Source: an uncultured Candidatus Bathyarchaeia archaeon
Lineage (GTDB): Archaea > Thermoproteota > Bathyarchaeia > Bathyarchaeales > Bathyarchaeaceae
DNA length: 39,147 nucleotides
Assembly (NCBI GenBank): GCA_964347855.1
Contig: CAYGAE010000003.1
Location: forward strand, 1 to 39,147
Direction of reading: 5' to 3'
The translations under genes were made by a program, and so were the position numbers. The stretch's first letter is position 1. Every line of letters starts with the position of its first letter. Of the stretch, positions 31 to 32,201 are shown piece after piece. The notes beneath the pieces are model-generated. The model did no database searches. It saw only the letters and a list, made by a program, of their open reading frames with translations, and was not told where the DNA came from.

Positions 31-2805
31 ATGCTGAGGGAAGCATTGAACTATGGGGACAAGGCAATTGCTATATTTTCTGAACTGGGGGAGGAATACG
101 AGCTTGCTAGAGCCTACTACACGACAAGTATTCATTACAGCACTGCAGCAAAGGTTCTGGAACCAGAGCAAGAGAGAGAATCTGAACAGACAGCCTTAAA
201 CTATTCGAAAAAAGCCCTGGAGCTTTCTGAGAAAATCGGCGACAGCTTTCTTTTGAGCATGTCAAACATCTGGTTAGGGACCGCTATTGTTAGTTTCGCT
301 GACCGTCCAGATTCCGCCGCGAAGCATTTCGAAATTGCACTACAGAATGGCATTCACACAAAGGACAATTATCTAATCGGACGAGCATCCTATTTGTTGG
401 CACATCTGATAGCTTGGAAAATGGTTGCAGAGGAAGACCCAGAAAAGATAAAAGAGGAATCAAGAGAATGCGAGAAGTATAGCAACGATGCCATTCACCA
501 TTTCAGATTGATCTCCAACGATCAGGAGGTGGCGTCCAGTTACTATTGGTACGCAGAAAACCACATTCTTCTAGCCACCTCTGCCGAAACGAGCTCTCAC
601 AAAAGGCGCCTTCTCCTCAAGAAATCAATCAAGGCTGGAAGAAAAGGCCTGGAATATGCGAGACGCTCAGGTTCCGTAAGAGCTACATGGCTAATCCTTC
701 ACCCCCTTAGCAAGTCTCTATCTCTGCTATCAACCATGGAAACAGACCTGGATCTAAAGAAGCGACTCCTTGAAGAGTCATTACGATGCAGAAAAGAAAA
801 CATCAAAGCTCTGGAGCAGGCAATGCCATACCATTTTTGGAATCACGGCGTGTATCATAATTATCTGGCCTTGATACAATCCGAACTCGCAGAATTAGAG
901 AAGGAGGAAAAACAGAAACTAGAACTTCTGGACGAGGCAATAAAGAGTTCAGAGACTTGCATAAATCTTTGCTTGAAGCAAAGAACCTTTAGTCAAGGAC
1001 AGCACGCTGCGCTTGGAGGATATTACCGCTACCTCGGAGGAATCCTCGATAAACTTTACTTATTAACTGGAACTCCTGGCCTTTTCAACAGGATAATAGA
1101 GGTCTTGAAGAGTGCTGTCGAAACATACGAAAAAGCTCAATTGCCCAGTCGTGCTGCCGAGAGCTACTGGCAACTAGCTGAAACCTACAACAAGCTGCAA
1201 AACTACGCGGAATCTGCAGAAAACTTCAAAGCAGCATCAAAAAGCTATAACGCAGCTGCCAAGACACTGCCACGACTCAGAAATTTCTATTCAGACTACG
1301 CCATTTACATGCAGGCGTGGAGCGAAATCGAGAAAGCAAGGCGCATTCATGCAAAGGGAGAGTACGGTCAAGCAATGGAATGTTACAAAAAGGCAGCCAA
1401 CTTGCACGCGTCGACGAGATTGTGGAAATATCTCGCCCCAAACTATCTGGCCTGGGCCCAACTGGAACGCAGCGAACACTTAAGCAGGAAAGAAGAGAGC
1501 CAAAAGGCCAAAAAAGCCTTTAAAAAAACTGCTGAGCTGTTCAACGAAGCCAAACTCTCACTCGAAACCAGCTTGGACAAGATCGAAAGCGCGGACGAGA
1601 AAAGTATGGCCACCGAACTTGTCAAAGCCTCAGACTTCAGGCATGAATACTGCTTGGGAAGAATCGCTGTCGAGGAAGCGAGAACCCTCGACAGGCTGGG
1701 TGACCATACTTCAAGCTCGAAAAGATATAGCTTGGCAGCCGAAACATTCGAAAGGATGGATAAGTCAATTGAGTATGAACCAAACCACATGGAGTTGAGA
1801 CCTATTATCTATCTCTGCCGAGCTTGGCAGAAGATGACGCTCGCGGAGGCGAGGATCTCACCTGATTTGTATATGGAGGCAGCGGAACTCTTCGAGAAAG
1901 CGAAAGAATATAGCTTCGATGAAAAAGCCAAGGTATTGGCTTTGGGTCACAGTTGTTTTTGCAAGGGGCTAGAAGCGGGAGCCAGATTTGAGGCTACAAG
2001 GGATACAGCACTGTACTCAACTACAACGCAACACTTGGAGAGTGCAGCAAGCTACTATGTAAGAGCCGGCTTCAAAACCGCTTCAGAGTATGCGAAAGCT
2101 ACTCAACGACTCTTCGATGCTTACTTGTATGTGGACGACGCAAAGAAGGCGAGAGATGTCGAGAAGAAGGCGAAATACTATTCCATGGCAGAAAAGGTCT
2201 TGGAGACATCCATTGGCTTATATCGCAGAGCAAAACACCCTGAAAAGAGTGATATGGTTCAAAGACTTTTGGAAGAAGTCAGAGAGGAAATGCAGCTGGC
2301 TATGTCCTTAAGCGAGGTATTCCATGCCCCACCCGCTGTCGCAACGACAGCGACCTTCTCAACTCCACTTCCCGACAAGGAAAAGGCTGTTGGCCTTGAA
2401 AAATTTGAGCACGCAAATATACAAGCAACCCTGATCCTCAGCTTTCTGGAGGTTAATGTTGGAGAAGATCTTGGCTTGGAGATAGAACTCGCCAACACTG
2501 GAAACGGTCCTGCCTCCTTGATCAAGGTTGAAGAGATCATCCCCACAGGCTTTGAACTGAGGAAGAAGCCTGAAAAATACCGCGTTGAACACCGCTCTTT
2601 GAACATGAAAGAAAAAAGCCTTGGCCCACTCAAAACTGAAGAGGTCAAGCTCGTCCTACGACCAAAGACGAAAGGAACATTTCACTTTAACCCAAAGATA
2701 CTATATCTGGATGAAAGTGGCAAACACAAGGTACACGAGCCTGAGTCCGTTACGATAACGGTCAAAGAGTTGGGAATCAAAGGCTGGATCAAAGGAGAAA
2801 GATAA
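31..2805 (+). CDS. Large TPR-like helical-repeat protein with a C-terminal CARDB/DUF11-like beta-sandwich domain; function unknown
   Basis: Uninterrupted 924-aa ORF. Most of it is A/Y/L/E/K-rich helical repeats (e.g. AESYWQLAETYNKLQNYAESAENFKAASKSY, ECYKKAANLH, AASYYVRAGFKTASEYAKA), typical of TPR-like solenoids. The last ~130 aa (ATLILSFLEVNVGEDLGLEIELANTGNGPASL...GTFHFNPKILYLDESGK...VTITVKE) look like an all-beta adhesion/CARDB-type fold. The frame stays open back to base 1, so the true start may lie upstream of the window. Confidence 0.6.
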   Translation: MLREALNYGDKAIAIFSELGEEYELARAYYTTSIHYSTAAKVLEPEQERESEQTALNYSKKALELSEKIGDSFLLSMSNIWLGTAIVSFADRPDSAAKHFEIALQNGIHTKDNYLIGRASYLLAHLIAWKMVAEEDPEKIKEESRECEKYSNDAIHHFRLISNDQEVASSYYWYAENHILLATSAETSSHKRRLLLKKSIKAGRKGLEYARRSGSVRATWLILHPLSKSLSLLSTMETDLDLKKRLLEESLRCRKENIKALEQAMPYHFWNHGVYHNYLALIQSELAELEKEEKQKLELLDEAIKSSETCINLCLKQRTFSQGQHAALGGYYRYLGGILDKLYLLTGTPGLFNRIIEVLKSAVETYEKAQLPSRAAESYWQLAETYNKLQNYAESAENFKAASKSYNAAAKTLPRLRNFYSDYAIYMQAWSEIEKARRIHAKGEYGQAMECYKKAANLHASTRLWKYLAPNYLAWAQLERSEHLSRKEESQKAKKAFKKTAELFNEAKLSLETSLDKIESADEKSMATELVKASDFRHEYCLGRIAVEEARTLDRLGDHTSSSKRYSLAAETFERMDKSIEYEPNHMELRPIIYLCRAWQKMTLAEARISPDLYMEAAELFEKAKEYSFDEKAKVLALGHSCFCKGLEAGARFEATRDTALYSTTTQHLESAASYYVRAGFKTASEYAKATQRLFDAYLYVDDAKKARDVEKKAKYYSMAEKVLETSIGLYRRAKHPEKSDMVQRLLEEVREEMQLAMSLSEVFHAPPAVATTATFSTPLPDKEKAVGLEKFEHANIQATLILSFLEVNVGEDLGLEIELANTGNGPASLIKVEEIIPTGFELRKKPEKYRVEHRSLNMKEKSLGPLKTEEVKLVLRPKTKGTFHFNPKILYLDESGKHKVHEPESVTITVKELGIKGWIKGER

Positions 2806-2903: not shown

Positions 2904-3416
2904 CTAAGGGAGAATTTCCGATAGAAGACGACCCAGTTGCTTCGCGGTTTTTTCTACCTGGCTAGTTAAGCCCTCTCCGAACGTGGCGTCCTCCGGCTGT
3001 ATCGCCAGTATAGCAACCTTGGCATCTGTTGTCTTTGCAAGGAATCTGCAGAATATTTGGAGAGGCAAAGCGTGGGTTGATATGGCTGGTTGATTGGCTA
3101 TCTGATCGGGATTTATGAGTTTCGAAGAACCAGGATCAAGGTCTAATGCGGCAGCGTCGACGACTAATATGTGGGTGGGGTTGAATTCTGTTATTGGTTC
3201 TATGAAGCTCTCGGGGACGGTTTCACATTCTATCAGATAAACGCGTTTGGAGACTTTGCCATACAAGTCTTTTACGATTTTTGTGCCGACGAAATCGTCC
3301 TTTCGAAGAGGATTCCCGATCCCGGCAATGACAACTCGCTGAGCGTCAGATAGCCAGGTTTTCAAAGTGACCTCAATATTATTCGTTTCAGTTTTGGGAC
3401 TGCCCATCGTTTCCAA
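2904..3416 (-). CDS. [NiFe]-hydrogenase maturation endopeptidase (HycI/FrhD/HyaD family)
   Basis: 170-aa ORF with family hallmarks: VVIAGIGNPLRKDDFVG near the N-terminus, a mid-protein VVDAA, and STHALPL near the C-terminus. It is the last gene of the minus-strand hdr operon. Confidence 0.8.
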   Translation of the reverse strand: METMGSPKTETNNIEVTLKTWLSDAQRVVIAGIGNPLRKDDFVGTKIVKDLYGKVSKRVYLIECETVPESFIEPITEFNPTHILVVDAAALDLDPGSSKLINPDQIANQPAISTHALPLQIFCRFLAKTTDAKVAILAIQPEDATFGEGLTSQVEKTAKQLGRLLSEILP

Positions 3417-3463: not shown

Positions 3464-4339
3464 TTAGATGAGTTTCAAAACCTTGGATGCATCGACTCTA
3501 AGTTGGCTCAAGGCTAGTTCGTCGGGGTTGAAGCCCATTGCCAATCCTAGGAGTTGCGTGTAGTGAAGTACTGGAATGCCGAAGGTTTCGTTGAAGGTTC
3601 GTTCTATTCTGGGTTGATTGATGTCAAACATCATGTGACAGTAAGGACACACAGTGATCAAAGCTTGGGCCCCAACACTCCTGATATGGCCAAGTTTTTC
3701 TTTAGCCAACCGGAGGGGAATTTGGTCGTTTACGCCGACTATGGGTCCGCCGCAGCACTCAGGTTCATCTATGTAGTCCAAGTATTTCGCTCCAGTTGCC
3801 TCAATTAGGGTTTTGAGAACCTTAGGATTTTCTGGGTCGTCAATGCCTACTTCTTTCGCAGGACGAACGACGTGACATCCAGTATGCTGCGCCACCTGGA
3901 GCTGATTAAGTGGCTTCTGAACGGCGTCTTTGATTTTTTCGAAGCCGATGTCTGTTGAGAGCACGTGAATGAGGTGTTTGATCTTTACTGTTCCTTTAAA
4001 CTCCATGCCGATTTCCTTCAAGTAGTCGTTGACTTTCTCCCTGAGTTTCTTGTCTTCTTTGAGTTCTTTGTTGACGTGGTTTAGGATGCCGAAACAGCCG
4101 TTGCACAGAGTCAGGATGTCTAAGTTCTGTTGCTCCGCTAAACAGAGGTTTCGTGCCGCCAAGGTGAGCATCATGTCGTGATTTACTGGATCCAATGGAA
4201 ATCCACAGCAGTTGAACTCTGGCATCTCCACCAATTCTACGCCAAGTTTATCGAGAACTTTTCTAGCGGAAATCTCGTAACTAGCGATTCTATACGGAGT
4301 AACGCATCCTAGAAAAAATAGGTACTTTAACTCTGGCAT
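3464..4339 (-). CDS. hdrB: Heterodisulfide reductase subunit B (two CCG domains)
   Basis: 291 aa with two CCG-type cysteine motifs (PEFNCCGFPL...LCNGC; EPECCGGPI...VCPYC). It sits 3 nt downstream of hdrC. Confidence 0.92.
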   Translation of the reverse strand: MPELKYLFFLGCVTPYRIASYEISARKVLDKLGVELVEMPEFNCCGFPLDPVNHDMMLTLAARNLCLAEQQNLDILTLCNGCFGILNHVNKELKEDKKLREKVNDYLKEIGMEFKGTVKIKHLIHVLSTDIGFEKIKDAVQKPLNQLQVAQHTGCHVVRPAKEVGIDDPENPKVLKTLIEATGAKYLDYIDEPECCGGPIVGVNDQIPLRLAKEKLGHIRSVGAQALITVCPYCHMMFDINQPRIERTFNETFGIPVLHYTQLLGLAMGFNPDELALSQLRVDASKVLKLI

Positions 4340-4342
4340 TTT

Positions 4343-4894
4343 TTAGGTCTTCTCCTTCTCAAGCGTCTTCGAAAAACCGGTAACGTCGAAAAGTTTGGTG
4401 ATGCTTTCTAAGTTGGCCTTTGGCAGAGAGGGCAATCCTGTCTCTTGCCTTTTTCTCAGCCGCATGTTTGGAATCGTGTAGGCATAGCCTGTTTTCCGGA
4501 TGTTAGAAGCTAACTCCTTGTACACGGCAGGCATGTGGCTCCTTTCTACAGTTAAGTTTCGAAGCGCCCGTACAATGCTGGCGATTCCCACATCTTGCGG
4601 GCAATGGTCGATACACGTAAAGCAGGTAGAACAGAGCCAGATGACATCGTTGGAAAGGAGTCTGTCTTTCAGGCCTAGTTGCGTCATTCGAATGAGTTTT
4701 CTGGGTCGGTAGAAATCATCAAACCGCGCGATTGGGCAGTCGGCTGTGCAAGTTCCGCATTGGAAGCATAACGCGATCTTTTCGGCTCCGGGAAACTTGC
4801 TTATATCGTATTTGAAGCGTGGATCCATTTCGCTTGATTTGACCATCGTTTTTTTAGTTGCCTCTGCTTGTGGCTTTTTCTTTGTTTCAGCCAT
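4343..4894 (-). CDS. hdrC: Heterodisulfide reductase subunit C (2x[4Fe-4S] ferredoxin-like)
   Basis: 183 aa with CFQCGTCTADCP and CSTCFTCIDHCP motifs. Its start overlaps the mvhD stop by 8 nt. Confidence 0.9.
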   Translation of the reverse strand: MAETKKKPQAEATKKTMVKSSEMDPRFKYDISKFPGAEKIALCFQCGTCTADCPIARFDDFYRPRKLIRMTQLGLKDRLLSNDVIWLCSTCFTCIDHCPQDVGIASIVRALRNLTVERSHMPAVYKELASNIRKTGYAYTIPNMRLRKRQETGLPSLPKANLESITKLFDVTGFSKTLEKEKT

Positions 4895-5321
4895 TGCTTG
4901 TTCCTCCAGCCCTTAGTGGGCTCGGTCCGAGTTTCTTTATTTCCTTCGTCATGTCCTTAATAATGGTTGCGAATCTCTCTCCTTCAGACGCCGAGACCCA
5001 CTCCAGTCGTAAACGCTCAGGTTTTAGACCTAAATGTTCCAAGACCTTCTTCAACATTAAAACTCTATGTTGTGCTTTGTAATTTCCAGAGAGGTAGTGA
5101 CAGTCGCCAGAGTGGCAGCCAGCGATGAGAACTCCGTCTGCTCCGCTTCGGAAGGCTTCGAGGATGAAAACTGGGTCAACTCTTCCGCTACACATCACCC
5201 TCACGATTCTAAGGGTTGGAGGATATTGGATTCGGCTAACACCTGCTAGGTCGGCACCGGCATAGGAGCACCAGTTGCAAAGGAAACCCACAATTTTTGG
5301 TTCAAATCCAGGTTTAGTCAT
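4887..5321 (-). CDS. mvhD: MvhD-type [2Fe-2S] adaptor protein (methyl-viologen-reducing hydrogenase delta subunit family), stand-alone
   Basis: 144 aa: FLCNWCSYAGADLAGVSRIQYPPTLRIVRVMCSGRVDP...GADGVLIAGCHSGDCHY. Overlaps the hdrA stop by 8 nt. Confidence 0.9.
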   Translation of the reverse strand: MTKPGFEPKIVGFLCNWCSYAGADLAGVSRIQYPPTLRIVRVMCSGRVDPVFILEAFRSGADGVLIAGCHSGDCHYLSGNYKAQHRVLMLKKVLEHLGLKPERLRLEWVSASEGERFATIIKDMTKEIKKLGPSPLRAGGTSNG

Positions 5322-8300
5322 ATTTTCCTTCCTCCATCAACGCGGCCCGAACTTGGGCAAGAATCTGGTCGTCAGTGAAGTGAAGCATGGATATGGCCTT
5401 AGCAGGGCAAGTGGAGCCACAGACGCCACAACCTTTACATAGAGCCTCGATAACGTGTGCCCTCGACTTTCCATTCATCTCTTCCATCTTGATGGCGCCA
5501 TACTCGCAAACGGGCTCGCAGAATCCGCATCCACTACAGAAGTCTTCGTTAACTCTGGCCACTGCTCCTTCTACTTCCAATACTTTCTTGGACAAAATCG
5601 TGATTGCTCGCGCCGCAGCTGCGGATGCTTGTGAAATGCTCTCTTCGATTGATTTCGGCCAGTGAGCCAACCCACAAAGGAATATGCCATCCGTTGCGAA
5701 GTCAACGGGACGGAGCTTCATGTGTGCTTCCAAGAAGAATCCGTCTTGGTTGAGTGGAACTTTCAGCATTTTTGCTATGTGATCGTTGTCTTGATTTGGA
5801 ATGGTGGCTACGCTCAGCGCCAAAAGGTCCGCCTCAATTGTCAGCCACATCTTGACGACTGGCTCCCAGACCACCATTTTGAGCTTGCCATCCTCTTGAA
5901 TAACCTTCGGCTTGTTTTCATCGTCATAGCGTATGAATAAGACTCCCTTACTTGCAGCCTCACGATAGTAATCCTCTATGAACCCGTATGTTCTCATGTC
6001 TTTGTACAGGACGTAGACGTCTGTTTCAGGGCTTAGCTCCTTAATCTTTAATGCATTTTTTACGGCTTGAGAACAGCATATTCGCGAGCAGTAGTGACGC
6101 TCTTCATTCCTAGAACCAACACATTGAATCATTGCCACAGTCTTAGCGCTAAACTGCCCATTAGCCAGCTTCTCTTCTAATGCACGCTGAGTCAAAACCG
6201 TTTTGTCGACACCATAGAGATACTCTGTCGGCTCATACTCCATGGCTCCAGCGGCAACTATCACAATGCCATGGTTTATCTCCTTTCTTTCTCCACCACA
6301 ACTAAGGGTCGTCTTGAAGTTTCCAACATATCCCTCAACATCGGAGATTTCAGAATTTAGATAAACATGAATTTTCTCGTTCCCATCGACTTCCTTTACG
6401 ATCGATTTCAGCTTTTCTTGCGGGGCCTCAGATCCAAGAAGATAATGTATATGGCGCAGGTGGCCTCCCAGTTCCTTCTCCTTCTCCACCAAATGGACCT
6501 CGAAGCCTTGTTTCGCCAATTCTAAGGCTGCAGTCATTCCTGACAAGCCGCCTCCGATCACTAGACCCGTGGGCGTAACATCTATCACCGGATTCTTGAG
6601 AGGCTTCAACAAGCGGGCTTTGGCGACAATGGATCTGACAAGATCCTTCGCTTTTTCAGTCGCTTCTTCAGGTTCATGCATGTGAACCCAGCTACATTGG
6701 TCACGAATGTTTGCCATCTCAAAGAGGTAAACGTTAAGCCCGGCTTTCCGGATGGTTTCTCTTAAAAGCGGTTCATGAGTTCTTGGAGTGCACGACGCCA
6801 CAACCACGCGGTTAAGGTTTTGTTCCTCTATTGTTTCCCTTATCCTCTTCTGAGCGTCTTCTGAGCACGTGTACAAATTATGCTCTGCGCAAACAACATT
6901 TGGCAACGTTTTAACGTACTCGACGACCTCTGGCACATCGACGACTCCCCCAATATTTATGCCGCAGTGGCAAACAAAAACTCCAATGCGGGGCTCCTCA
7001 TCGGATACGTCTCTCTCTGGTGGATACTCTTTTGCGGTTGTGAGCGTCCCTCTCTCCGACGAAATCAAGCTAGCCGCTTTTGCCGCGGCCCCACTCGCCT
7101 GCGCCACGCTCTCAGGAATGTCTTTGGGAGAAGAAAATGCTCCGCAAACGTATATTCCGGGCTTGGATGTCTCTAGCGGGGAGAACGTTTCAGAGCGACA
7201 GAAGTTGTATCTATTTAGTTTAATGTTCAGCGTTTTGGCCAATTCCTGAGCATGTTTGGGTGGCCTCATCCCAACCGATAGCACTACGAGATTGAATTCT
7301 TCGATCTTAAGGTTCCCATCTTCAACATATCTCAATAAGAGGTTTTGCGATTCCGGAATCTCTTCTATTCGAGGTACTCGAGACCTAACGAAAGTCACTC
7401 CGTATTCTTCTTCTGCTCTATTATAGTAAGCATCAAACTCCTTCCCATAGGCACGCACATCCATAAAGAAAATGGTGCATTGCAGGGTGGGATTGTGTTC
7501 CTTGGCTATGATCGCCTCTTTGATGGCATACATGCAACAAGCTGAAGAGCAGTAATTATTTCCAAGCTTAGCGTCACGCGAACCCACACATTGAATGAAT
7601 GCTATCTTCCGTGGAACCTTACCATCAGAGGGACGTAAGACCAATCCACCATAAGGTCCTGAAGCACTTAGAATACGCTCAAATTCAATGCTAGACACCA
7701 CATTTGAATACTGTCCATAGCCGTACTCCGTTTTGAGTTTTGGATCAAACTCTTCGAAACCTGGTGCCAGTATAATGGATCCAACGTGCAATACGGTTTC
7801 CCTTTCTTTTTCGTCATATTTGACCGCACCTGCCTTACAGATTTCTTGGCAGGTGCCACACCCGATGCATTTTTCTTTGTCAATGGCATAAACTAAGGGA
7901 ACCGCTTGCGGATACTTAACGTAGATCGCAGTTCTTTCGCCTAGGCCTTCATTGAATTCATCTATCGCTTCAACAGGGCATTTTCGAGCGCATAAACCGC
8001 AACCCGTGCACTTCTCTTCATCAATATACCTAGGTTTCCTTAGGCATGTAACTTGGAAGTGCCCTTCTTCACCTTCGACACTCTTTATTTCTGCGCCCAT
8101 AATTAGTTCAATGTTATGGTGCCTTCCAGCCGTGACCAGTTTCGGCGCTAGAATGCACATTGCACAATCATTGGTCGGAAAGGTTTTGTCGAGTTGGGTC
8201 ATGGTGCCGCCTATACTGGTTGATTCATCCAGCAGATACACTTTGAATCCTGAGTCAGCGAGATCGAGTGACGATTGTATTCCAGCGATTCCGCCGCCCA

Positions 8301-8334
8301 CTACGAGTACGGCGCCTACCTTGTCTTTCATCAT
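5314..8334 (-). CDS. hdrA: Tandem (double-module) HdrA-like flavoprotein
   Basis: 1006 aa. Residues 1-~425 are an FAD domain (VVGGGIAGIQSSLDLADSG, QLDKTFPTNDC, FIQCVGSRD, CSSACC) with an inserted 2x[4Fe-4S] ferredoxin (CTGCGLCARKCP, CIGCGTCQEIC). Residues ~448-1006 are an HdrA N-terminal Cys domain (RIGVFVCHCGINIGG), a second FAD domain (VIGGGLSGMTAALELAKQG, IQCVGSRN, CSRICC) without the insert, and a C-terminal ferredoxin (CSGCGFCEPVC, CKGCGVCGSTCP) ending in the HFTDDQILAQV tail. Confidence 0.9.
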   Translation of the reverse strand: MMKDKVGAVLVVGGGIAGIQSSLDLADSGFKVYLLDESTSIGGTMTQLDKTFPTNDCAMCILAPKLVTAGRHHNIELIMGAEIKSVEGEEGHFQVTCLRKPRYIDEEKCTGCGLCARKCPVEAIDEFNEGLGERTAIYVKYPQAVPLVYAIDKEKCIGCGTCQEICKAGAVKYDEKERETVLHVGSIILAPGFEEFDPKLKTEYGYGQYSNVVSSIEFERILSASGPYGGLVLRPSDGKVPRKIAFIQCVGSRDAKLGNNYCSSACCMYAIKEAIIAKEHNPTLQCTIFFMDVRAYGKEFDAYYNRAEEEYGVTFVRSRVPRIEEIPESQNLLLRYVEDGNLKIEEFNLVVLSVGMRPPKHAQELAKTLNIKLNRYNFCRSETFSPLETSKPGIYVCGAFSSPKDIPESVAQASGAAAKAASLISSERGTLTTAKEYPPERDVSDEEPRIGVFVCHCGINIGGVVDVPEVVEYVKTLPNVVCAEHNLYTCSEDAQKRIRETIEEQNLNRVVVASCTPRTHEPLLRETIRKAGLNVYLFEMANIRDQCSWVHMHEPEEATEKAKDLVRSIVAKARLLKPLKNPVIDVTPTGLVIGGGLSGMTAALELAKQGFEVHLVEKEKELGGHLRHIHYLLGSEAPQEKLKSIVKEVDGNEKIHVYLNSEISDVEGYVGNFKTTLSCGGERKEINHGIVIVAAGAMEYEPTEYLYGVDKTVLTQRALEEKLANGQFSAKTVAMIQCVGSRNEERHYCSRICCSQAVKNALKIKELSPETDVYVLYKDMRTYGFIEDYYREAASKGVLFIRYDDENKPKVIQEDGKLKMVVWEPVVKMWLTIEADLLALSVATIPNQDNDHIAKMLKVPLNQDGFFLEAHMKLRPVDFATDGIFLCGLAHWPKSIEESISQASAAAARAITILSKKVLEVEGAVARVNEDFCSGCGFCEPVCEYGAIKMEEMNGKSRAHVIEALCKGCGVCGSTCPAKAISMLHFTDDQILAQVRAALMEEGKYD

Positions 8335-9104
8335 GTTACCTCCAGTGCGATGTATAGGGGGTCCTCCCCTTCCATTCTATCCAGGGTAACTAGCCCTCGC
8401 TGCTTCAAGATCACCATGTGGCGCAACACGATTTTCGGGTCCAAGCGCAAATGTTTGGCTAAACCTTCAACGGACATTGGCTTATTCTTCACAAGAAGAT
8501 GAATTCTGCTTCGTACGTACTCTGCATCGATACTCTCATCCATCAATTCGTCAAACTCCTTTTGTTCCACTTTTTCACCGTACACGTTTTCTTCTTCGAC
8601 TAGCCTCTTCTCTCTGCCCACCAGCGTTCGCAGTCTAGAATCTCCCGCCACTGCTTTGGCTGCCATAAGGCTGGCCAACAATTTTTTGTCTCGATTTCCT
8701 CCGGCCAAAGGAGACGGCCCTAGCGCCGTCACGTGATTTCTAAAATCGTTAACGATGTGTGCGAAGCGTTCAATTTCGGACGCATAAGCCCAGTCTAACC
8801 CAAGGCGCCCTGGTTCAAGACCAGTTCGCGAAATGAGTTTCTTTAGCATCGCAATTTTCCGTTCTGCCTGAAGGTTTCCTTCAACGTAGTGACAATCGGG
8901 TGGGTGACAGCCTATTACCAAAACCCCGTCTGCCCCCTTGGCAAAAGTTTCTAGCACGATAACTGGATCGATTCTCCCAACACACATTACTCGTACTATG
9001 TGTATTTTGGGGTGACCAGGTATGGTGTCAGTACCTGCAATGCCGATATCTGTAGGCAGACTCCAGTTACATACAAAACCAATGATTTTAGGTCTAAACA
9101 TCAT
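8331..9104 (-). CDS. MvhD-like domain fused to a C-terminal winged-helix-like domain
   Basis: 257 aa. The N-terminal ~140 aa align with MvhD (IIGFVCNWSLPTDIGIAG...IHIVRVMCVGRIDP...GADGVLVIGCHPPDCHY), but the CNWC motif is CNWS here. The C-terminal ~60 aa (MSVEGLAKHLRLDPKIVLRHMVILKQRGLVTLDRMEGEDPLYIAL) have a wHTH pattern. ATGA overlaps on both sides. Confidence 0.8.
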   Translation of the reverse strand: MMFRPKIIGFVCNWSLPTDIGIAGTDTIPGHPKIHIVRVMCVGRIDPVIVLETFAKGADGVLVIGCHPPDCHYVEGNLQAERKIAMLKKLISRTGLEPGRLGLDWAYASEIERFAHIVNDFRNHVTALGPSPLAGGNRDKKLLASLMAAKAVAGDSRLRTLVGREKRLVEEENVYGEKVEQKEFDELMDESIDAEYVRSRIHLLVKNKPMSVEGLAKHLRLDPKIVLRHMVILKQRGLVTLDRMEGEDPLYIALEVT

Positions 9105-10834
9105 GCGGCTTCTCTCCCCAAAACGGCTGCAACATTAGCCACAATTTGAGCATCTGTAAACCGTCGCAAGGTAATCGCTCGGTCGGGACAACTTGCGCTA
9201 CAGATCCCACAGCCCTTACATAGGTCTTCGTCCACTTGCGCAATCCCCATTTCATTCTTCTTTACGGCGCCAGTGGGGCAGACTACCGCGCAGAGGTTGC
9301 ACCCAGTACACAAAGTTTCATCGATCACTGCTTTGTCAGCTTCACACAACTCCTCGCTTCCGAGACATTCAGTGCATGGTCCGCATTCGAGACACCTCCG
9401 GGCTTCGAACATGGCGACTTCTTTAGTCGTCGCTAGGAGTTCATCGGCTTTCTCAAAGCTTACTTTCTGTCTCCCCACGTCTAGGTGTGGAACGGTATAT
9501 CTCTCAGGCTTTTTGGTCATCTTTTCCGAGTCTTTAACCCAAGTTGTCTCTTCAATTTCCTCTTCTCGACCAATCCTCAAATCCTCGCCATTCAAATAAC
9601 GGCCTATTGACTCCGCCGCTCGTTTGCCTGCACCTACAGCCTCTATTACGCTTGCAGGACCGGTGACTATGTCACCTCCTGCAAAAACACCAGGGATCCT
9701 AGTTTCCAGTGTTAATGGATCAACCGAAATACCACGTGCACGCTCATCCAAAAGAATGGAAGGTAGACATGAAGTTTCCGCCAGTTGACCGATTGCCGCA
9801 ATTACTGTATCCGTCTCATACGTGTGCTCAGACCCTTGGATGGGTATTGGACGCCTTCTGCCGCTTGCGTCAGGTTCTCCCAGCTCCATCCTCAAACATT
9901 CTATAAGCTTGATCCTGCCTCCCTCACCAATAATTTGCTTGGGTGCAACTAGAAATTGGAACTTAACTCCTTCTTCTCTTGCAGCATCTATTTCGTGGGG
10001 AAGTGCTGGCATTTCTTTCCGGGAGCGACGGTAGAGAATCGTGACCTCTTTTGCCCCAAGTCTTAGCGATGTGCAAGCGGCATCGATGGCGCTGTTGCCT
10101 CCTCCGATGACCGCAACTTTCTCGCCTACGTCAATCGTTTTTCCTAGGGATACATGCCTTAAGAATTCAACTGCGTGAAAAACACCCTCCAAATCTTCGC
10201 CCGGTATCCCCAGTTTTGTGCTCAATTGTGCTCCGTTCGCTATGAATGTGGCTTTGTAGCCCTCATTTCGTAGAGTGTCAAGCTGTACGTCTTTGCCGAA
10301 TTCTACTCCTGTCTTGATCTCCACACCTAGATCTTGGATGTACGCTATTTCATTATTTACAACATATTTTTGCAGACGATAGTCAGGGATACCGTATCGC
10401 ATCATGCCGCCAGGTTCAGGCATACGCTCAAAAACTGTAACTGGATAGCCGAGTTTTGCGAGTTCGTATGCAGCGCTCAGTCCTGCTGGTCCCGCGCCAA
10501 CTATCGCCACTTTTTCACGGTGCGTTTTGGGTATGGGATCTGGTTTGATTCGCCCTTGTTCACGTTCAATGTCTGCAGCAAGTCTTTTCAAATAACGAAT
10601 GCCCACAGGCTGATCGATGTTTCTTCTTGAACACGCATCCTGGCAAGGGCTGAAGCAGACTCTGCCGCAAATTGCCGGAAAAGGCATGCTCTTTCTCACT
10701 AGTTCCACCGATTCTTTGAACTTCCCTTGCTGAAGTAGGGCAATATATCCCTGAACATTCACGTCGGCAGGACATGCGGCACGACAGGGAGGTAGCTTCC
10801 GTTTGTTCTTGAAAGCGCAACTAAGAGCGGTCAT
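9101..10834 (-). CDS. GltD/NfnB-family NAD(P)H-dependent FAD oxidoreductase with a C-terminal HdrA-style 2x[4Fe-4S] ferredoxin tail
   Basis: 577 aa. The N-terminal Cys region is CRAACPADVNVQGYIALLQQGKFKESVELVRKSMPFPAICGRVCFSPCQDAC. Two dinucleotide folds are present (VAIVGAGPAGLSAAYELAKLG; VAVIGGGNSAIDAA), as is GVFAGGD. The C-terminal ~100 aa add CTGCNLCAVVCP and CKGCGICSASCP and end with AITLRRFTDAQIVANV, the same tail seen at the end of the HdrA ferredoxin domains in this window. Confidence 0.85.
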   Translation of the reverse strand: MTALSCAFKNKRKLPPCRAACPADVNVQGYIALLQQGKFKESVELVRKSMPFPAICGRVCFSPCQDACSRRNIDQPVGIRYLKRLAADIEREQGRIKPDPIPKTHREKVAIVGAGPAGLSAAYELAKLGYPVTVFERMPEPGGMMRYGIPDYRLQKYVVNNEIAYIQDLGVEIKTGVEFGKDVQLDTLRNEGYKATFIANGAQLSTKLGIPGEDLEGVFHAVEFLRHVSLGKTIDVGEKVAVIGGGNSAIDAACTSLRLGAKEVTILYRRSRKEMPALPHEIDAAREEGVKFQFLVAPKQIIGEGGRIKLIECLRMELGEPDASGRRRPIPIQGSEHTYETDTVIAAIGQLAETSCLPSILLDERARGISVDPLTLETRIPGVFAGGDIVTGPASVIEAVGAGKRAAESIGRYLNGEDLRIGREEEIEETTWVKDSEKMTKKPERYTVPHLDVGRQKVSFEKADELLATTKEVAMFEARRCLECGPCTECLGSEELCEADKAVIDETLCTGCNLCAVVCPTGAVKKNEMGIAQVDEDLCKGCGICSASCPDRAITLRRFTDAQIVANVAAVLGREAA

Positions 10835-10892: not shown

Positions 10893-11486
10893 TTAAAGGC
10901 TCAGAATTCGCGGTTGACCTAGCTTGTTCACCAACGTTTTATATTGGGGTAGCTTCATCAAATCCCTTAACTCTTCTTCTAATGTGATTACGTTGTTAGG
11001 TTTGATTTCGGCTATCCATAATTCATGCGGCTCTTTGTTGATTATGAATGGCTCGTCTTGCAGACCTTCATTGATTTTGATGACTCTGCCACTGACTGGA
11101 GAGGTTAGGTCGAACATGAACATCCACGTTTCAACAACCCCTAGGGGCTCTCCCTTCTTCACTTCAAATCCGACATGATGCGTCTGGATACTAGCTACTC
11201 CTTTCAAACGCCTTTGGGCGTAGTCGGCTAAGCCTACTCTTATGTTTCCTTCAGGAGTCACCATTGCCCACATGTGCTCAGGGGTGTAAAGCAGCCGTTC
11301 TTGGACTACTGGATATTCAGGCCGCTTCTCAGCTGTCTTCTCATGTCTTCGCTCAAGTTCATCAAGGCGCACTCGAATAGCTTCAGACACAAACTCGGAG
11401 AGACTACGGTAGCGGCCCTTCTCGAGCGTCCTCTTTGCCGCTGCCACGAGTTCTTGTCTAAGGCGTATAGTTTTCCATTCTGGCAT
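10893..11486 (-). CDS. Ribbon-helix-helix (CopG-like) domain fused to a glycine-cleavage-H-like domain lacking the lipoyl-lysine; putative regulator
   Basis: 197 aa. The N-terminus (KTIRLRQELVAAAKRTLEKGRYRSLSEFVSEAIRVRLDELE) fits an RHH pattern. Residues ~65-165 align colinearly with GcvH (YTPEHMWA...VGLADYAQ..L...GEPLGVVETWMFMFDLTSPVSGRVIKINE...P..IN.EP). The position of the lipoylated Lys (ESVKA in E. coli GcvH) is Met (codon 11121-11123). Confidence 0.75.
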   Translation of the reverse strand: MPEWKTIRLRQELVAAAKRTLEKGRYRSLSEFVSEAIRVRLDELERRHEKTAEKRPEYPVVQERLLYTPEHMWAMVTPEGNIRVGLADYAQRRLKGVASIQTHHVGFEVKKGEPLGVVETWMFMFDLTSPVSGRVIKINEGLQDEPFIINKEPHELWIAEIKPNNVITLEEELRDLMKLPQYKTLVNKLGQPRILSL

Positions 11487-11508: not shown

Positions 11509-12099
11509 TTAGTGAAGCCGACCGTCAAGTCTAGCAACTAGTTTCTTGTACTCTCCTAAACTTAGCAGCCCGTTCATCCACGAGTTAACTTCTGTGTTCT
11601 CAGGCTGGATCTCAACAATCCATTGATAGGGTTCGACGTTCAATCTGAATGGGTCGTCGATGACCGTCTTGTTGACTGAGAGTATCTCTCCGTTTAATGG
11701 AGAATATAGGTCGTATGTGAACCACCAGGTTTCAGCTACACCAAAGGGTTCATCTTTAGAAACCTCCTTTCCGACATCATCTGTTCGAATATTGACTATC
11801 TCTCGGAGTTGGCCCTGGAAATAATCAGTTATCCCGATCTTTACATTTCCTTGAGGAGTTGCTTGGGCCCAGATGTGTTCTGGCACGTAGAACAACCGCG
11901 CTTGCAGTTGAAGCGTTCTGCTGACCCTATCTCGCTCCAGATATTCCGATACTCTTTCTTTGGCTAACGTTTGTAGGCGACTTCGAATGGCTTCTGAAGC
12001 GAATTCAGTGAGGCTTTGATACTGTCTTTTCTCTACTTCTTTCTTCATTTCATCTGCGAGTTCTTGTCGAATCCTTACAGTTTTCCATTTTTGCGGCAT
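11509..12099 (-). CDS. Paralogous RHH + GcvH-like (lysine-less) protein; putative regulator
   Basis: 196 aa with the same architecture as 10893-11486 (KTVRIRQELADEMKKEVEKRQYQSLTEFASEAIRSRL; YVPEHIWAQ...IGITDYFQGQL...DEPFGVAETWWFTYDLYSPLNGEI). The lipoyl-Lys position is Trp (codon 11722-11724). A strong AGGAGGTGG lies just upstream of the ATG. Confidence 0.75.
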   Translation of the reverse strand: MPQKWKTVRIRQELADEMKKEVEKRQYQSLTEFASEAIRSRLQTLAKERVSEYLERDRVSRTLQLQARLFYVPEHIWAQATPQGNVKIGITDYFQGQLREIVNIRTDDVGKEVSKDEPFGVAETWWFTYDLYSPLNGEILSVNKTVIDDPFRLNVEPYQWIVEIQPENTEVNSWMNGLLSLGEYKKLVARLDGRLH

Positions 12100-16478: not shown

Positions 16479-16521
16479 TTTTGTTCTTCACTAAGAGATT
16501 GTCGTAAGTTGCGTGAATCAC

Positions 16522-17460
16522 ATGGAAAAACTGAAATTTGCCTTCTATTGGGCCGCCAGCTGCGGAGGTTGCGAAATAGCGGTGCTGGACATAAACGAAA
16601 AAATCCTAGATGTTGTTGCCAAGGCAGACATCCTCTTCTGGCCAGTAGCTATGGACATTAAATACAAAGATGTGGAGGCGTTTCCAGATAAACACATTGA
16701 TGTTTGCTTCTTTAATGGGGCAATTAGAAACGAAGAACAGGAACACGTAGCCAAACTCTTGAGACGAAAGTCTAAAGTTCTCGTGGCTTTCGGCTCCTGC
16801 GCCTGTGACGGATGTGTCGTAGGCCTTGCGAATCTCTGGGACAGAGAAACAGTCTTTGAACGAGCGTACCTTGAAACGCCTTCGACGAAAAACCCTGAAT
16901 CAGTGACACCGAAGACTTCTGTTAGGGTCAAAGAAGGAGAGTTGGAACTACCTGAATTTTACAACACTGTGAAAACCCTAGCCCAGACGGTAGACGTAGA
17001 CTATTTTCTCTCAGGGTGTCCCCCACCGATTCCCAGTATAGTTCAAGCGGTCGGAGCAATTTTCAACAATAAGTTGCCTCCGAAAGGAGCAAGTTTGCTA
17101 CCAACCAAGTCCATTTGCGATGAATGCCCCAGAGAGAAAAAGGACAAACAGCTCTCTGAAATAAGGAGAATCTACGAAATCGACGACGACCTAAAAACAT
17201 GCTTCTGGGACCAAGGGGTCATATGCATGGGTCCAGCTACACGAGCAGGCTGTGGCGCCCAGTGTCCAAACGTAAACATACCTTGCACAGGTTGCGATGG
17301 GCCAGGTCCACGCGTCACAGACCAAGGTGCTGCCGCAATCAGCGCACTTGCATCCATTGCAACTAATCCAGAAGTCATCAATCAGGTTGTGGATCCAGTT
17401 GGAACCTTCTACAAATACTCTCTTGCCAATTCAATTCTCAGGAGGAAGGTGATGAAATGA
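16522..17460 (+). CDS. mvhG: F420-non-reducing (group 3c-like) [NiFe]-hydrogenase small subunit
   Basis: FYWAASCGGCEIAVLD proximal-cluster motif plus further Cys clusters (GSCACDGC; CDECP; CGAQCPNVNIPCTGCDGP). The stop overlaps the mvhA start (ATGA). The ORF track begins at GTG 16513; ATG 16522 is preferred. Confidence 0.9.
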   Translation: MEKLKFAFYWAASCGGCEIAVLDINEKILDVVAKADILFWPVAMDIKYKDVEAFPDKHIDVCFFNGAIRNEEQEHVAKLLRRKSKVLVAFGSCACDGCVVGLANLWDRETVFERAYLETPSTKNPESVTPKTSVRVKEGELELPEFYNTVKTLAQTVDVDYFLSGCPPPIPSIVQAVGAIFNNKLPPKGASLLPTKSICDECPREKKDKQLSEIRRIYEIDDDLKTCFWDQGVICMGPATRAGCGAQCPNVNIPCTGCDGPGPRVTDQGAAAISALASIATNPEVINQVVDPVGTFYKYSLANSILRRKVMK

Positions 17461-18911
17461 AAGAAATAGTCATAGACCCGATCACAAGACTGGAAGGTCA
17501 TGGAAAAATCACCATATTCCTAAACGACCAGGGAAACGTGGAAAACGCCTACTTCCAAGTCCCCGAACTTAGAGGGTTTGAGCGGTTCTGCGAAGGAAGA
17601 AGGGCGGAAGACTTACCCATAATAACGACTAGAATCTGCGGAGTCTGCCCCGTTGCCCACCACATGGCGGGTGCAAAGGCGTTAGACGCGGCATTCAATG
17701 TGGAACCGACAGATCCGGCTAAGAAGTTGAGAGAGCTGGAGTATGTCTGCTACTATATCTACGATCACATATTGAATTTCTACTTTTTGGCTGCTCCAGA
17801 TTTCGTTGTAGGGCCAGACGCTCCACCAGCGAAAAGAAACATTCTTGGAGTGATAGAGAAAGTCGGCTTGGATATTGCCAAAGAAGTAATCAAACACAGG
17901 GCCTATGGACAGAAGATGACCGGCATAATCGGAGGGAGACCAACTCATCCAGTGAGCGCTTTACCAGGCGGCATATCCAAGGCACTGTCTGAGGAGGAAC
18001 GACAAGAAATCGAAAAAATGGTCAGAAGCTGCATCGAATTCGCAAAATTCTCACTGAAAATATTCGACGATGTTGTTCTCAAGAACGTTGACTACGTAAA
18101 CTTGATCAAAAGCGAGCCGTACACTTTAGAGACCTATTACATGGGAACTGTTGACAAAAACAACAAAGTAAACTTCTACGACGGCGATGTCCGAGTAATT
18201 GATCCGAAAGGAAAGGAGTTTGTGAAGTTTGCTCCCGCAGAATATTTGGATGTTATCGAAGAACACGTTGAACCGTGGACCTACGTCAAATTACCCTACC
18301 TCAAAAAGGTTGGATGGAAAGGTCTAGTGGCTGGGCCTGATAGTGGCATCTACAGAGTTGGCACCCTTGGAAGACTGAACGCCGCAGAAGGCATGGCGAC
18401 ACCCATAGCCCAAGAAGAGTACGCGAGGATGTACAAGACTCTGGGCGGCAAACCTGTTCACGCCACCTTGGCATTTCATTGGGCACGGCTGATAGAACTC
18501 ATGTACGCAACCGAACGAGCCTTGGAGTTGGTCACGGACAAGGAAATAACGAGCAAAAATATCAGGAATAAACCTGGAAACCCCGGCGAAGGAGTCGGAA
18601 TAGTCGAGGCTGCTAGGGGCACTCTGATTCACCATTATGTACTCGATGAAAAAGCCTTAGCCAAAAAGGTCAACTTGATAGTGGCCACAGTCAACAATGC
18701 ACCGAGCATTTGCATGTCCGTAAGAAACGCTGCAAAAGGCCTTATACGCAACGGCAAAGTCAGCGATGGACTTTTGAACATGGTGGAGATGGCTTTCAGA
18801 GCCTACGACCCCTGCTTTGCCTGCGCCACCCACTTCGCCATCGGTGAAATGCCGTTAAAAGCGGAGATTTACAACCATAAAAAGAGATTAATAAAGACCA
18901 TAGAAAGGTGA
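17457..18911 (+). CDS. mvhA: F420-non-reducing (group 3c-like) [NiFe]-hydrogenase large subunit
   Basis: RLEGHG, the N-terminal Ni-binding RICGVCPVAHH motif, and the C-terminal DPCFACATH motif. A ~25-aa tail follows, consistent with proteolytic maturation. Confidence 0.92.
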   Translation: MKEIVIDPITRLEGHGKITIFLNDQGNVENAYFQVPELRGFERFCEGRRAEDLPIITTRICGVCPVAHHMAGAKALDAAFNVEPTDPAKKLRELEYVCYYIYDHILNFYFLAAPDFVVGPDAPPAKRNILGVIEKVGLDIAKEVIKHRAYGQKMTGIIGGRPTHPVSALPGGISKALSEEERQEIEKMVRSCIEFAKFSLKIFDDVVLKNVDYVNLIKSEPYTLETYYMGTVDKNNKVNFYDGDVRVIDPKGKEFVKFAPAEYLDVIEEHVEPWTYVKLPYLKKVGWKGLVAGPDSGIYRVGTLGRLNAAEGMATPIAQEEYARMYKTLGGKPVHATLAFHWARLIELMYATERALELVTDKEITSKNIRNKPGNPGEGVGIVEAARGTLIHHYVLDEKALAKKVNLIVATVNNAPSICMSVRNAAKGLIRNGKVSDGLLNMVEMAFRAYDPCFACATHFAIGEMPLKAEIYNHKKRLIKTIER

Positions 18912-25020: not shown

Positions 25021-25021
25021 C

Positions 25022-27160: not shown

Positions 27161-27164
27161 TTGG

Positions 27165-31978: not shown

Positions 31979-32201
31979 CTTTATGTCTCCGGTTGTGATG
32001 GTCTCGAAGTGGCTTTTAGAATTAAGCATAATCACCATTTAAACTCTTAAACATCTCGCTTAAAACCTCTAGATGTCAAAGCAGACAATCTTGACCAAGT
32101 AGAATCGTTCTCTCATGTCTTACTTTTAGCACAAGAGCCAAAAGCGCGCAGATTCTCCCAGGCTTTGGTTTTTTCACTTTATTGGCAATCTCTTGATAAG
32201 G

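Follow-up and report, generated by a model that had tools for sequence, protein, structure and literature searches.

In the solved complexes of the Fdh-Hdr, Elp-Hdr, and Mvh-Hdr types and in that of benzoyl-CoA reductase, a mobile arm is formed by HdrA's N- and C-terminal domains, MvhD, and an electron donor, and electrons are passed from the donor via the clusters of the arm and MvhD's [2Fe-2S] cluster to the flavin adenine dinucleotide (FAD) that carries out bifurcation in the partner HdrA (PMC12350162, PMC13580544, bioRxiv 10.64898/2026.04.10.717634). In the Fdh-Hdr and Elp-Hdr complexes of methanogens, formate dehydrogenase or the F420H2-oxidizing ElpAB docks on the HdrA arm together with MvhD or ElpC (PMC12350162, PMC13580544). 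The MvhD protein BamF of the class II benzoyl-CoA reductase BamB-I is more than 100 amino acids (aa) longer than is usual for MvhD, touches the module on the side of reduced nicotinamide adenine dinucleotide (NADH) with its winged helix-turn-helix (wHTH), and links this module to the fused double HdrA BamE (bioRxiv 10.64898/2026.04.10.717634). The general idea of an NAD(P)H-linked HdrA is also already known, from predictions or from enzymes: HdrL was described in 2009, and accounts exist of HdrA-NfnB fusions of ANME-1, of type III HdrA, and of Moorella HdrA with a GltD domain (PMC2702500, PMC12054007, PMC9012536, PMC9430772). Here, a 39-kb stretch of DNA from an archaeon of the Bathyarchaeia type (39,147 nucleotides (nt) of contig CAYGAE010000003.1; hereafter the window) was analyzed, whose named best protein matches are almost all from Bathyarchaeota/Bathyarchaeia. 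One of its operons encodes a 577-aa GltD-like flavoprotein with an HdrA-type C-terminal ferredoxin domain (GltD-Fd), followed directly by a long MvhD with a wHTH extension (MvhD-wHTH). A preliminary description had taken this pair for an NAD(P)H module that replaces the hydrogenase as the electron input of HdrABC. From the comparisons reported below, we consider it probable, at roughly 60%, that the pair is instead an arm coupling nicotinamide adenine dinucleotide phosphate (NADP(H)) to a multi-subunit Hdr complex.

An HdrA-Type Arm on a GltD-Type Flavoprotein

The operon of interest runs on the minus strand from 12099 down to 2904 and comprises nine genes, as judged from open reading frames (ORFs) and Pfam families. 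From the GltD gene through HdrC, neighboring genes overlap by 4–8 nt, which in its usual meaning indicates translational coupling. The features are as follows.

11509–12099, minus strand: GcvH-fold protein 1, first gene of the operon (Pfam GCV_H)
10893–11486, minus strand: GcvH-fold protein 2 (Pfam GCV_H)
9101–10834, minus strand: GltD-Fd, 577 aa, GltD/NfnB(NfnL)-type FAD/NADP(H) Fe-S flavoprotein with HdrA-type C-terminal ferredoxin domain and tail
10553–10795, minus strand: Fer4_20 region of GltD-Fd, residues 14–94 (Pfam PF14691, E-value 1.4e-17)
9626–10513, minus strand: FAD and NADP(H) dinucleotide-binding domains of GltD-Fd, residues 108–403 (Pfam Pyr_redox_2, E-value 1.8e-36)
9344–9394, minus strand: extra Cys motif in the linker of GltD-Fd, C481-x2-C484-x2-C487-x2-C490-x6-C497 (family alignment)
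9164–9343, minus strand: HdrA-type C-terminal 2x[4Fe-4S] ferredoxin domain of GltD-Fd, residues 498–557 (per-domain matches and AlphaFold 2 (AF2) model)
9104–9163, minus strand: tail helix of GltD-Fd, residues 558–577, ITLRRFTDAQIVANVAAVLGREAA, aligned with the HdrA tails HFKTEQIMAQIEAAL
8331–9104, minus strand: MvhD-wHTH, 257 aa, with MvhD/FlpD at residues 7–129 and linker plus winged helix at residues ~135–257
5314–8334, minus strand: double (type II) HdrA, 1006 aa (Pfam; three-segment alignment to 5odc_A)
4887–5321, minus strand: canonical MvhD, 144 aa, with the CNWC motif kept (Pfam FlpD, E-value 1.5e-58)
4343–4894, minus strand: HdrC (Pfam Fer4_8/Fer4_17; conserved operon position)
3464–4339, minus strand: HdrB with two CCG domains (Pfam CCG, E-value 2e-31)
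2904–3416, minus strand: HycI-type hydrogenase maturation protease (Pfam HycI; NCBIfam hycI, E-value 8e-34)

The C-terminus of GltD-Fd, ...CPDRAITLRRFTDAQIVANVAAVLGREAA, holds two CxxCxxCxxxCP-type motifs (C509–C519 and C539–C549; Pfam Fer4 dicluster, residues 502–555), followed by ITLRRFTDAQIVANV. This end matches an HdrA-type tail-helix motif like [HR]-F-T-[DN]-x-Q-[IL]-x-A, which is looser across the family of GltD-Fd (ITM...T.AQI). When the last 120 aa were compared with the PDB, the best single-domain matches came from five different HdrA proteins of known structure, each aligned by its C-terminal domain, at 51–54 bits (i-Evalue 1.5e-12 and 2.2e-13) and with the tail helix covered (e.g., AMDQQHFKTEQIMAQIEAALNEP). 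The best non-HdrA single ferredoxin domain, in the delta subunit of pyruvate:ferredoxin oxidoreductase (9bt4_G), reaches 44.5 bits and leaves the tail uncovered, and no single repeat of the polyferredoxin FwdF in the PDB scores above ~24 bits. An 81-residue query, consisting of the ferredoxin domain and tail, was further compared with 1.84 billion representative proteins. Ranking by total score placed polyferredoxins on top, an artefact of summed repeats that was gone after the matches had been re-ranked per domain. Outside the query's own family, the matches at 55–81 bits in this library all come from HdrA or HdrL C-termini or from short fragments that end in the same tail, with [HR]F[TS][DN]EQ[IL]xAQ-like motifs.

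The likeness to HdrA extends into the next gene, which overlaps the GltD-Fd gene by ATGA at 9101–9104. The NCBIfam model HdrA2, which describes an HdrA fused to MvhD, is colinear over both genes: the GltD tail (residues 498–574) corresponds to model positions 568–643 (E-value 2e-22) and MvhD-wHTH (residues 4–130) to positions 647–773. The AF2 model of the last 138 residues shows a ferredoxin fold with a predicted local distance difference test (pLDDT) score of ~85–93, followed by a terminal helix (positions 122–137 of the fragment). A Foldseek search with this model returned HdrA chains as its top five matches, with a high root-mean-square deviation, the helix being oriented differently in the isolated model; this ranking may be regarded as supportive of a kinship with HdrA, not as decisive. 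Collectively, the alignments indicate that the ferredoxin tail of GltD-Fd is homologous to the HdrA C-terminal domain and is no chance likeness, and we place high confidence in an HdrA origin of the entire cassette of ferredoxin tail and MvhD.

Related tails had also been quoted for five HdrA C-termini in the window, and all of them are present verbatim, in proteins of 1006 aa (5314–8334), 824 aa (33204–35678), 774 aa (25022–27346), 813 aa (29597–32038), and 807 aa (18922–21345). An MvhD/FlpD domain (PF02662) comes after each of the six tails, as had been described: it is fused in four of the HdrA proteins, lies in the next gene with an 8-nt overlap for the 1006-aa HdrA (HdrA-1006), and is MvhD-wHTH for GltD-Fd. 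The sequence statements of the preliminary description are all correct, and confidence in them is high. Five of these six co-occurrences are the ordinary HdrA-MvhD arrangement.

The Slot of GltD-Fd in Sister Operons

Six homologs of MvhD-wHTH on long contigs were looked up (L084–L089), and the operons around them show what stands in the place of GltD-Fd elsewhere. All six have the order HdrA′ with a C-terminal ferredoxin tail, MvhD-wHTH, double HdrA of ~1005–1017 aa, and MvhD. The HdrA′ in this first slot is either a double HdrA of ~1004 aa or split into parts of 435–440 and 557–570 aa. HdrC, HdrB, MvhG, and MvhA then follow in five of these sister operons; in L084, mvhGA is on the opposite strand. 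L084 also has a tandem array of at least three units of double HdrA plus MvhD-wHTH ahead of a terminal HdrA and MvhD. The GltD tail (residues 498–577) is 55–56% identical to the tails of the slot-1 HdrA′ proteins (95–101 bits) and 43–49% identical to those of the slot-2 HdrA proteins (67–72 bits), and the 257-aa MvhD-wHTH of the window is 50–60% identical over its full length to the HdrA′-linked MvhD-wHTH proteins. The simplest reading of these alignments would be a domain swap in slot 1, in which the body is either HdrA or GltD and the arm, consisting of the C-terminal ferredoxin, the tail, and MvhD-wHTH, is kept. Since an accessory HdrA occupies the same slot in the sister operons, GltD stands in the place of a flavoprotein body, not in that of the hydrogenase.

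A neighbor-joining tree was built from the concatenated ferredoxin tail and MvhD (58 cassettes, 215 columns). GltD-linked cassettes are monophyletic with 98% bootstrap support, and their clade is nested within HdrA cassettes together with the double-HdrA type (86–89%); the other three HdrA-MvhD fusions of the window and the HdrA cassettes of Desulfobacterota fall outside this grouping. The ferredoxin and MvhD parts taken separately give the same topology with weaker support. With the sister-operon sequences added, the point tree brings together P0210, a protein in which MvhD-wHTH is fused to HdrA, the GltD cassettes, and the HdrA cassettes of the wHTH type; the bootstrap support for a GltD clade that groups with one or more of these wHTH-type HdrA cassettes, the slot-2 type staying outside, is 76%. 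The preliminary description is thereby borne out in several respects: the 577-aa protein does end in a 2x[4Fe-4S] domain with a tail, this tail does side with HdrA C-termini rather than with generic ferredoxins, and tail and MvhD do form a homologous cassette of common origin with that of HdrA according to the PDB matches, the HdrA2 model, and the tree.

An apparent fusion of GltD-Fd and MvhD-wHTH (P0109, 809 aa, L001 10001–12430) was considered as proof of their association and rejected. At its junction, residues unrelated to the tail stand in the tail's place and a tail-like peptide occurs in another frame; a frameshift in a single metagenome-assembled genome is the probable cause, and the protein was not used as support.

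Operon Conservation and the Fate of mvhGA

The neighborhood was compared across 80 loci from species-representative genomes, together with loci found by exact protein look-up, using phmmer domain mapping with the window proteins as queries. MvhD-wHTH directly follows GltD-Fd in the window and in 20 related loci that have downstream sequence, nearly all of them labeled Bathyarchaeia. Behind MvhD-wHTH, all loci whose sequence continues have the double HdrA, and the longer ones then have MvhD, HdrC, and HdrB; the genes overlap or abut. A gene order so tightly conserved, with translational coupling to HdrA-MvhD-HdrCB, is an argument for counting GltD-Fd among the parts of an Hdr complex. Every locus with sequence upstream of GltD-Fd has there the genes of one or two GcvH-fold proteins together with a divergent AbrB-PhoU regulator.

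Thirteen loci, the window included, extend far enough downstream for the genes after hdrB to be read; in 10 of them, mvhG and mvhA come directly after it, usually with hycI behind them. The family of GltD-Fd therefore combines an NADPH module with a hydrogenase. The three loci lacking mvhGA after hdrB are the window, L005, and L014. In the window, hycI lies 47 nt past hdrB and the operon has no hydrogenase genes; its product is 54–56% identical to the HycI encoded after MvhA in the relatives. In L014, hycI is shifted to a position between mvhD and hdrC. Since hycI is left in the window where relatives have mvhG-mvhA-hycI, mvhGA has been lost secondarily from this operon. The only mvhGA of the window, at 16513–18911, belongs to a neighboring operon ~4 kb from the first gene of the GltD operon. 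It is 80–85% identical to the copies of the neighboring operon in relatives and 72–77% identical to the copies of their GltD operons, which identifies it as the ortholog of the former. Thus, the proposed replacement of the hydrogenase by the NAD(P)H module is not supported: mvhG-mvhA normally shares the operon, the window keeps hycI, and the slot of GltD-Fd holds a second HdrA in the six sampled operons. That the hydrogenase is not replaced in this family and that GltD occupies an HdrA slot can be stated with high confidence as regards synteny and with moderate confidence as regards the direction of evolution.

The two GcvH-fold proteins (197 and 196 aa) are paralogs. Their lipoyl Lys is replaced by Met or Trp (ETW-M/W-F...) in all orthologs, and neither protein has any cysteine. 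Their genes occur in every GltD-variant locus with upstream sequence and are absent from the six HdrA′-variant loci. The N-terminal segment of the pair resembles a ribbon-helix-helix by eye, with no Pfam match in that segment. A 309-aa lysine-less GcvH-like gene is also found near several genes for GltD-containing HdrL of Desulfobacterota (L026, L027, L029, L032, and L076).

The Flavoprotein Body

GltD-Fd belongs to a family of more than 120 clusters at 90% identity, whose members are 70–99% identical and nearly all ~577 aa long; the named clusters are from Bathyarchaeota. Typical bathyarchaeal GltD-Fd operons or proteins also carry the labels Krumholzibacteriaceae (contig L016) and Paceibacterota (protein P0096), which are probably binning errors. 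Upstream of the tail, the protein is of the GltD/NfnB type, with Fer4_20 at residues 14–94 and Pyr_redox_2 at residues 108–403, and no match to the thioredoxin-reductase-like FAD core of HdrA was found within it. Cysteines in or near the N-terminal region are at positions 6, 17, 21, 56, 60, 64, and 68, and by analogy with NfnB/GltD this region would be expected to hold two [4Fe-4S] clusters. For residues 14–488, the top PDB matches are domains of NfnA/StnC that are NfnL-like and bind NADP(H) (E-values 1e-134 to 1e-121), with NfnB (4ylf_B) matched as well (1.7e-101); for residues 498–575, they are HdrA.

The FAD motif is GAGPAG, and the second dinucleotide motif, GGGNSA...YRRSRKEMPA, has an NADPH-type pattern, in which the YRR arginines are presumed to act as in NfnB/GltD. 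For the type of nucleotide, the GXGXXA rule was followed as applied in PMC12054007. These motifs and the PDB relatives support the assignment of the GltD-type protein as an NADP(H)-type module. In NfnABC, the NfnL-like domain is a non-bifurcating entry port for NADP(H), from which a cluster chain leads to a bifurcating site elsewhere (PMC12018979). Between 2904 and 12099, neither an NfnA/SudB (PyrK-like) nor a GltB partner was found among the ORFs and their Pfam families. The insert carried by a bathyarchaeal type III HdrA forms the sister of the GltD core (55% identity, 83% bootstrap), and the next nearest by distance are the inserts of Desulfobacterota HdrL (44–49% identical). These relationships place the GltD core in a lineage that already works with HdrA.

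The extra motif C481–C497 is invariant in 64 aligned members of the family, and AF2 confidence is low there; it lies upstream of the two ferredoxin motifs, within the stretch (9101–9409) that the preliminary description had quoted for the ferredoxin domain, and an additional (third) Fe-S cluster is possible there. A string 'RCLECG.C' after the GltD core was considered as a remnant of the inserted ferredoxin domain of HdrA and discarded, as it also occurs in StnC/NfnA-like proteins and in other GltD fusions.

The MvhD-wHTH Adaptor

MvhD-wHTH is recognized by Pfam FlpD (PF02662, E-value 7e-40), and its core matches solved MvhD chains in the PDB (E-value 2e-35). It belongs to a family of more than 120 clusters at 90% identity, and a search with the HdrA-fused P0210 shows that MvhD-wHTH proteins of ~258 aa form a very large family. 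Four cysteines (C12, C41, C66, and C71) are invariant among 114 family members. The position of Cys16 in MvhD is different: the window protein reads CNWS, with Ser at its position 15, and Ser is found there in 86% of the family, whereas Cys16 is kept in the canonical 144-aa MvhD of the window and in the HdrA′-linked homologs. The MvhD-wHTH proteins after HdrA′ in L084–L089 carry CNWCSYAGADLAG, with Cys16 present, and those after GltD-Fd carry CNWSLP..., with Ser. For Cys16, a role in handing electrons of the [2Fe-2S] cluster on to the bifurcating FAD has been proposed (PMC13580544).

In the extension (residues ~135–257), a helical linker and a winged helix are conserved; HTH_5 is matched at residues 198–240 (E-value 6e-6), and AF2 predicts helices at 181–235 with a pLDDT of 83–90. 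A Foldseek search with the model ranked MvhD chains first and gave weak, non-significant wHTH matches, so that the assigned fold of the extension rests on Pfam and secondary structure.

Other HdrA Units and Genes of the Window

HdrA-1006 is a fused pseudo-dimer. Residues 9–371 form a thioredoxin-reductase core with an inserted ferredoxin domain and a DCAMC pair, residues 446–596 an N-terminal domain followed by a second thioredoxin-reductase-like core without the Cys pair, and residues 851–997 the end of this second core with the C-terminal ferredoxin domain and tail. The minus-strand region 22748–28478 holds a second GltD-type association: a split double HdrA, with an N-half of 437 aa and a C-half fused to MvhD (ORF of 774 aa), is followed by an NfnA/SudB-like protein of 275 aa and an NfnB/GltD-like protein of 482 aa (pair 22748–25020), without HdrBC. 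The order HdrA-MvhD, NfnA-like, NfnB-like is found again in L001 and L014. The mechanically called 774-aa ORF (25022–27346, minus strand) overlaps the upstream gene for the HdrA N-half by ~180 nt; its real start is probably the Met before EPAKEELRIGVFVCHCG (~residue 63), giving ~712 aa, the size of the L001 ortholog. In the 813-aa HdrA (29597–32038, minus strand), the fused MvhD lacks all four cluster cysteines (LEKEIAYG..., VPTTGR, and LLEAHGG), which makes the binding of a [2Fe-2S] cluster impossible; a thioredoxin-reductase-like gene (28628–29572) comes after it.

At the right-hand edge of the window lie genes for archaeal NusA-KH, L30e, and RNA polymerase subunit A. The largest subunit of RNA polymerase, which is split into A′ and A″ in most archaea, seems to be unsplit here (36418–39147, minus strand): Rpb1 domains 2–5 lie in one ORF, domain 5 is complete, and the ORF continues past the end of the window. 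At the other end, a 924-aa ORF (31–2805, plus strand) is repeat-rich with a composition like that of tetratricopeptide repeats and has no Pfam family at an E-value below 1e-5. Scans of the window for tRNA genes and Rfam families gave no matches.

Possible Role in an Hdr Complex

Starting from the domain identities, the cassette homology, the conserved synteny, and the loss of mvhGA in this genome, we infer a physical assembly, a cofactor content, and a path and direction of electrons as follows. The complex would consist of the double HdrA, MvhD, and HdrBC, and in most relatives also of the MvhAG [NiFe]-hydrogenase. HdrA-1006 would have its own arm served by the 144-aa MvhD, and GltD-Fd with MvhD-wHTH would provide a second arm in trans that carries an NADP(H) site. 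This arm would be a chimera of a GltD/NfnL body with an HdrA's C-terminal ferredoxin and tail helix, followed by the cognate long MvhD of that HdrA. Electrons would move between NADP(H), FAD, the [4Fe-4S] clusters, the HdrA-type ferredoxin domain, the [2Fe-2S] cluster of MvhD-wHTH, and the HdrA/HdrBC core, with the wHTH acting as a protein-docking element. As a mid-potential donor, NADPH might supply electrons in addition to H2 or in its place; conversely, electrons derived from H2 might reduce NADP+. The loss of Cys16, seen in the GltD variant only, leaves both directions of flow possible. Of the NAD(P)H-driven HdrABC complex put forward in the preliminary description, the NADP(H)-type module and its coupled synteny with Hdr genes stand, while the word 'driven' is not decidable from sequence.

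Several points weigh against a role of the pair as an NADP(H)-coupling arm. The assembly is predicted from homology and synteny. The double HdrA already owns an arm, consisting of its N-terminal domain, its C-terminal ferredoxin domain, and MvhD; its CxxC pair is present in one half only, and a docking site for a second arm is not evident. The lack of Cys16 may mean that the GltD arm does not use the canonical route to a bifurcating flavin. The exact sister group of the GltD cassettes has moderate bootstrap support in neighbor-joining trees of short domains, and the sole fusion of GltD-Fd with MvhD that was found, P0109, gives no independent support. HdrB would also need some disulfide as its substrate in these non-methanogens.

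The alternative closest to the preliminary description is that NAD(P)H has taken the place of H2, so that an electron-bifurcating HdrABC would pass electrons from NADPH to ferredoxin and a disulfide, analogous to FlxABCD-HdrABC. It would explain why the window operon, with hycI right after hdrB, and likewise L005 and L014 lack mvhGA, and precedents exist in which other donors replace Mvh via an MvhD homolog (Elp-Hdr, Fdh-Hdr, and Flx-Hdr). However, mvhG-mvhA sits right after hdrB in most GltD-Fd operons, the window retains hycI and has mvhGA in its neighboring operon, the canonical MvhD, which is the usual connector of the hydrogenase, is still next to HdrA, and the slot taken by GltD is that of the second HdrA; we regard this replacement as unlikely. 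The same operons could instead be read as making the pair an acceptor module of the hydrogenase apart from HdrA/HdrBC, with electrons running from MvhAG through MvhD-wHTH, the ferredoxin domain, and FAD to NADP+. GltD-Fd would then substitute for HdrA and make an NADP-reducing [NiFe]-hydrogenase of Mvh. The shared C-terminal ferredoxin and MvhD, by which HdrA is joined to Mvh, the presence of mvhGA in the operon of most relatives, and the loss of Cys16, which fits a non-bifurcating partner flavin, are in keeping with such a module. But the pair is always immediately upstream of the double HdrA and translationally coupled to it, with five genes between it and mvhGA; the window and two related loci have kept the operon although mvhGA is missing from it; and the slot-1 unit of the sister operons is itself an HdrA, so that this route appears improbable.

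MvhD-wHTH might also be a redox-sensing DNA-binding regulator, combining a [2Fe-2S] cluster with a winged helix, whose adjacency reflects the regulation of the operon. HTH_5 is indeed a family of the ArsR type, the C-terminal Foldseek matches are to small DNA-binding wHTH proteins (DeoR and LexA, E-values above 1), and the operon is rich in putative regulators (the RHH-like/GcvH-like proteins and AbrB-PhoU). Nevertheless, MvhD, linker, and wHTH are fused in one chain to the HdrA C-terminus in P0210 (and in the fragments P0391 and P0393), the protein is always encoded between two redox subunits by overlapping genes, the solved adaptor BamF docks a protein via its wHTH, and the four cysteines and the MvhD core are strongly conserved; a regulatory role is thus very hard to credit. 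A bolder view, which we hold as speculative, is that the mobile arm of C-terminal ferredoxin and long MvhD-wHTH is a portable docking cassette passed between unrelated flavoproteins, which in Bathyarchaeia would build a two-armed, asymmetric super-complex on the fused double HdrA. With a [NiFe]-hydrogenase on one arm and an NADPH flavoprotein on the other, such a complex could balance H2, NADP(H), ferredoxin, and some disulfide, and the lysine-less GcvH-fold proteins, encoded only with the GltD variant, might be a further dedicated component.

Significance and Comparison with Known Systems

Bathyarchaeia are among the most abundant uncultured archaea of anoxic sediments, and to our knowledge their energy conservation has so far been inferred from genomes only. 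If both proteins of the pair are subunits of the main complex of Mvh-Hdr type in these archaea, a direct link would exist between the NADP(H) pool and H2, ferredoxin, and a disulfide couple, and metabolic reconstructions of Bathyarchaeia would change. The presence of the same arm (C-terminal ferredoxin and MvhD-wHTH) on an HdrA body or on a GltD body also bears on the modularity of HdrA-based bifurcation, and the two kinds of operon are matched pairs for probing the roles of the arm and of the winged helix. In the full-text literature, with many subscription papers outside its coverage, no account was found of a GltD that stands alone and has an HdrA tail and MvhD-wHTH. What appears undescribed is the combination of a stand-alone GltD bearing only the arm domain of HdrA, its own MvhD-wHTH without Cys16, an operon that normally includes MvhAG, and lysine-less GcvH-fold proteins.

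Among systems that link a pyridine-nucleotide module to HdrABC and an MvhD homolog, the FlxABCD-HdrABC of Desulfovibrio and other anaerobes reportedly places an NADH module on HdrABC, with the MvhD homolog FlxD encoded in the cluster (said to be described by Ramos et al. in 2015). The window operon differs in that homologs of FlxA, FlxB, and FlxC are absent among its ORFs, which include only MvhD-type and HdrABC genes of that system. Its module is of the GltD/NfnL type with an NADPH-type motif and an HdrA domain, and MvhAG is encoded in the same operon in most relatives. BamF, compared here by description only, resembles MvhD-wHTH in its length (257 aa for MvhD-wHTH against ~140 aa for ordinary MvhD), in its wHTH extension, and in its association with a double HdrA, which MvhD-wHTH precedes. 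It differs in having Sec19 at the position of the extra Cys, where the window protein has Ser, and in its donor, which is of the NuoEFG/HydBC type rather than GltD. The Fdh-Hdr and Elp-Hdr complexes share the principle of an alternative donor module on an arm of HdrA N-/C-terminal domains and an MvhD-type protein. There, the ferredoxin domain stays on HdrA and the donor is separate, whereas here the donor itself bears a copy of the ferredoxin domain and comes with a second MvhD.

The closest solved relatives of residues 14–488 are the NfnL-like domain of NfnABC/StnABC and NfnB (E-values 1e-134 to 1e-97). Unlike these, GltD-Fd has neither a NuoG/Fdh-like scaffold nor an NfnA/SudB partner in its operon, and its downstream domain is derived from HdrA. 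HdrL and type III HdrA (Desulfobacterium autotrophicum, ANME-1, Bathyarchaeota, and Moorella) come nearest in also coupling a GltD-type NAD(P)H module to HdrA cofactors, followed by MvhD. In those proteins, however, GltD is inserted in the inserted-ferredoxin domain of a complete HdrA (cf. L021–L043, where it is flanked by HdrA), whereas GltD-Fd is a stand-alone protein that has only the C-terminal ferredoxin and tail of HdrA, is provided with its own long MvhD, and is encoded upstream of a double HdrA.

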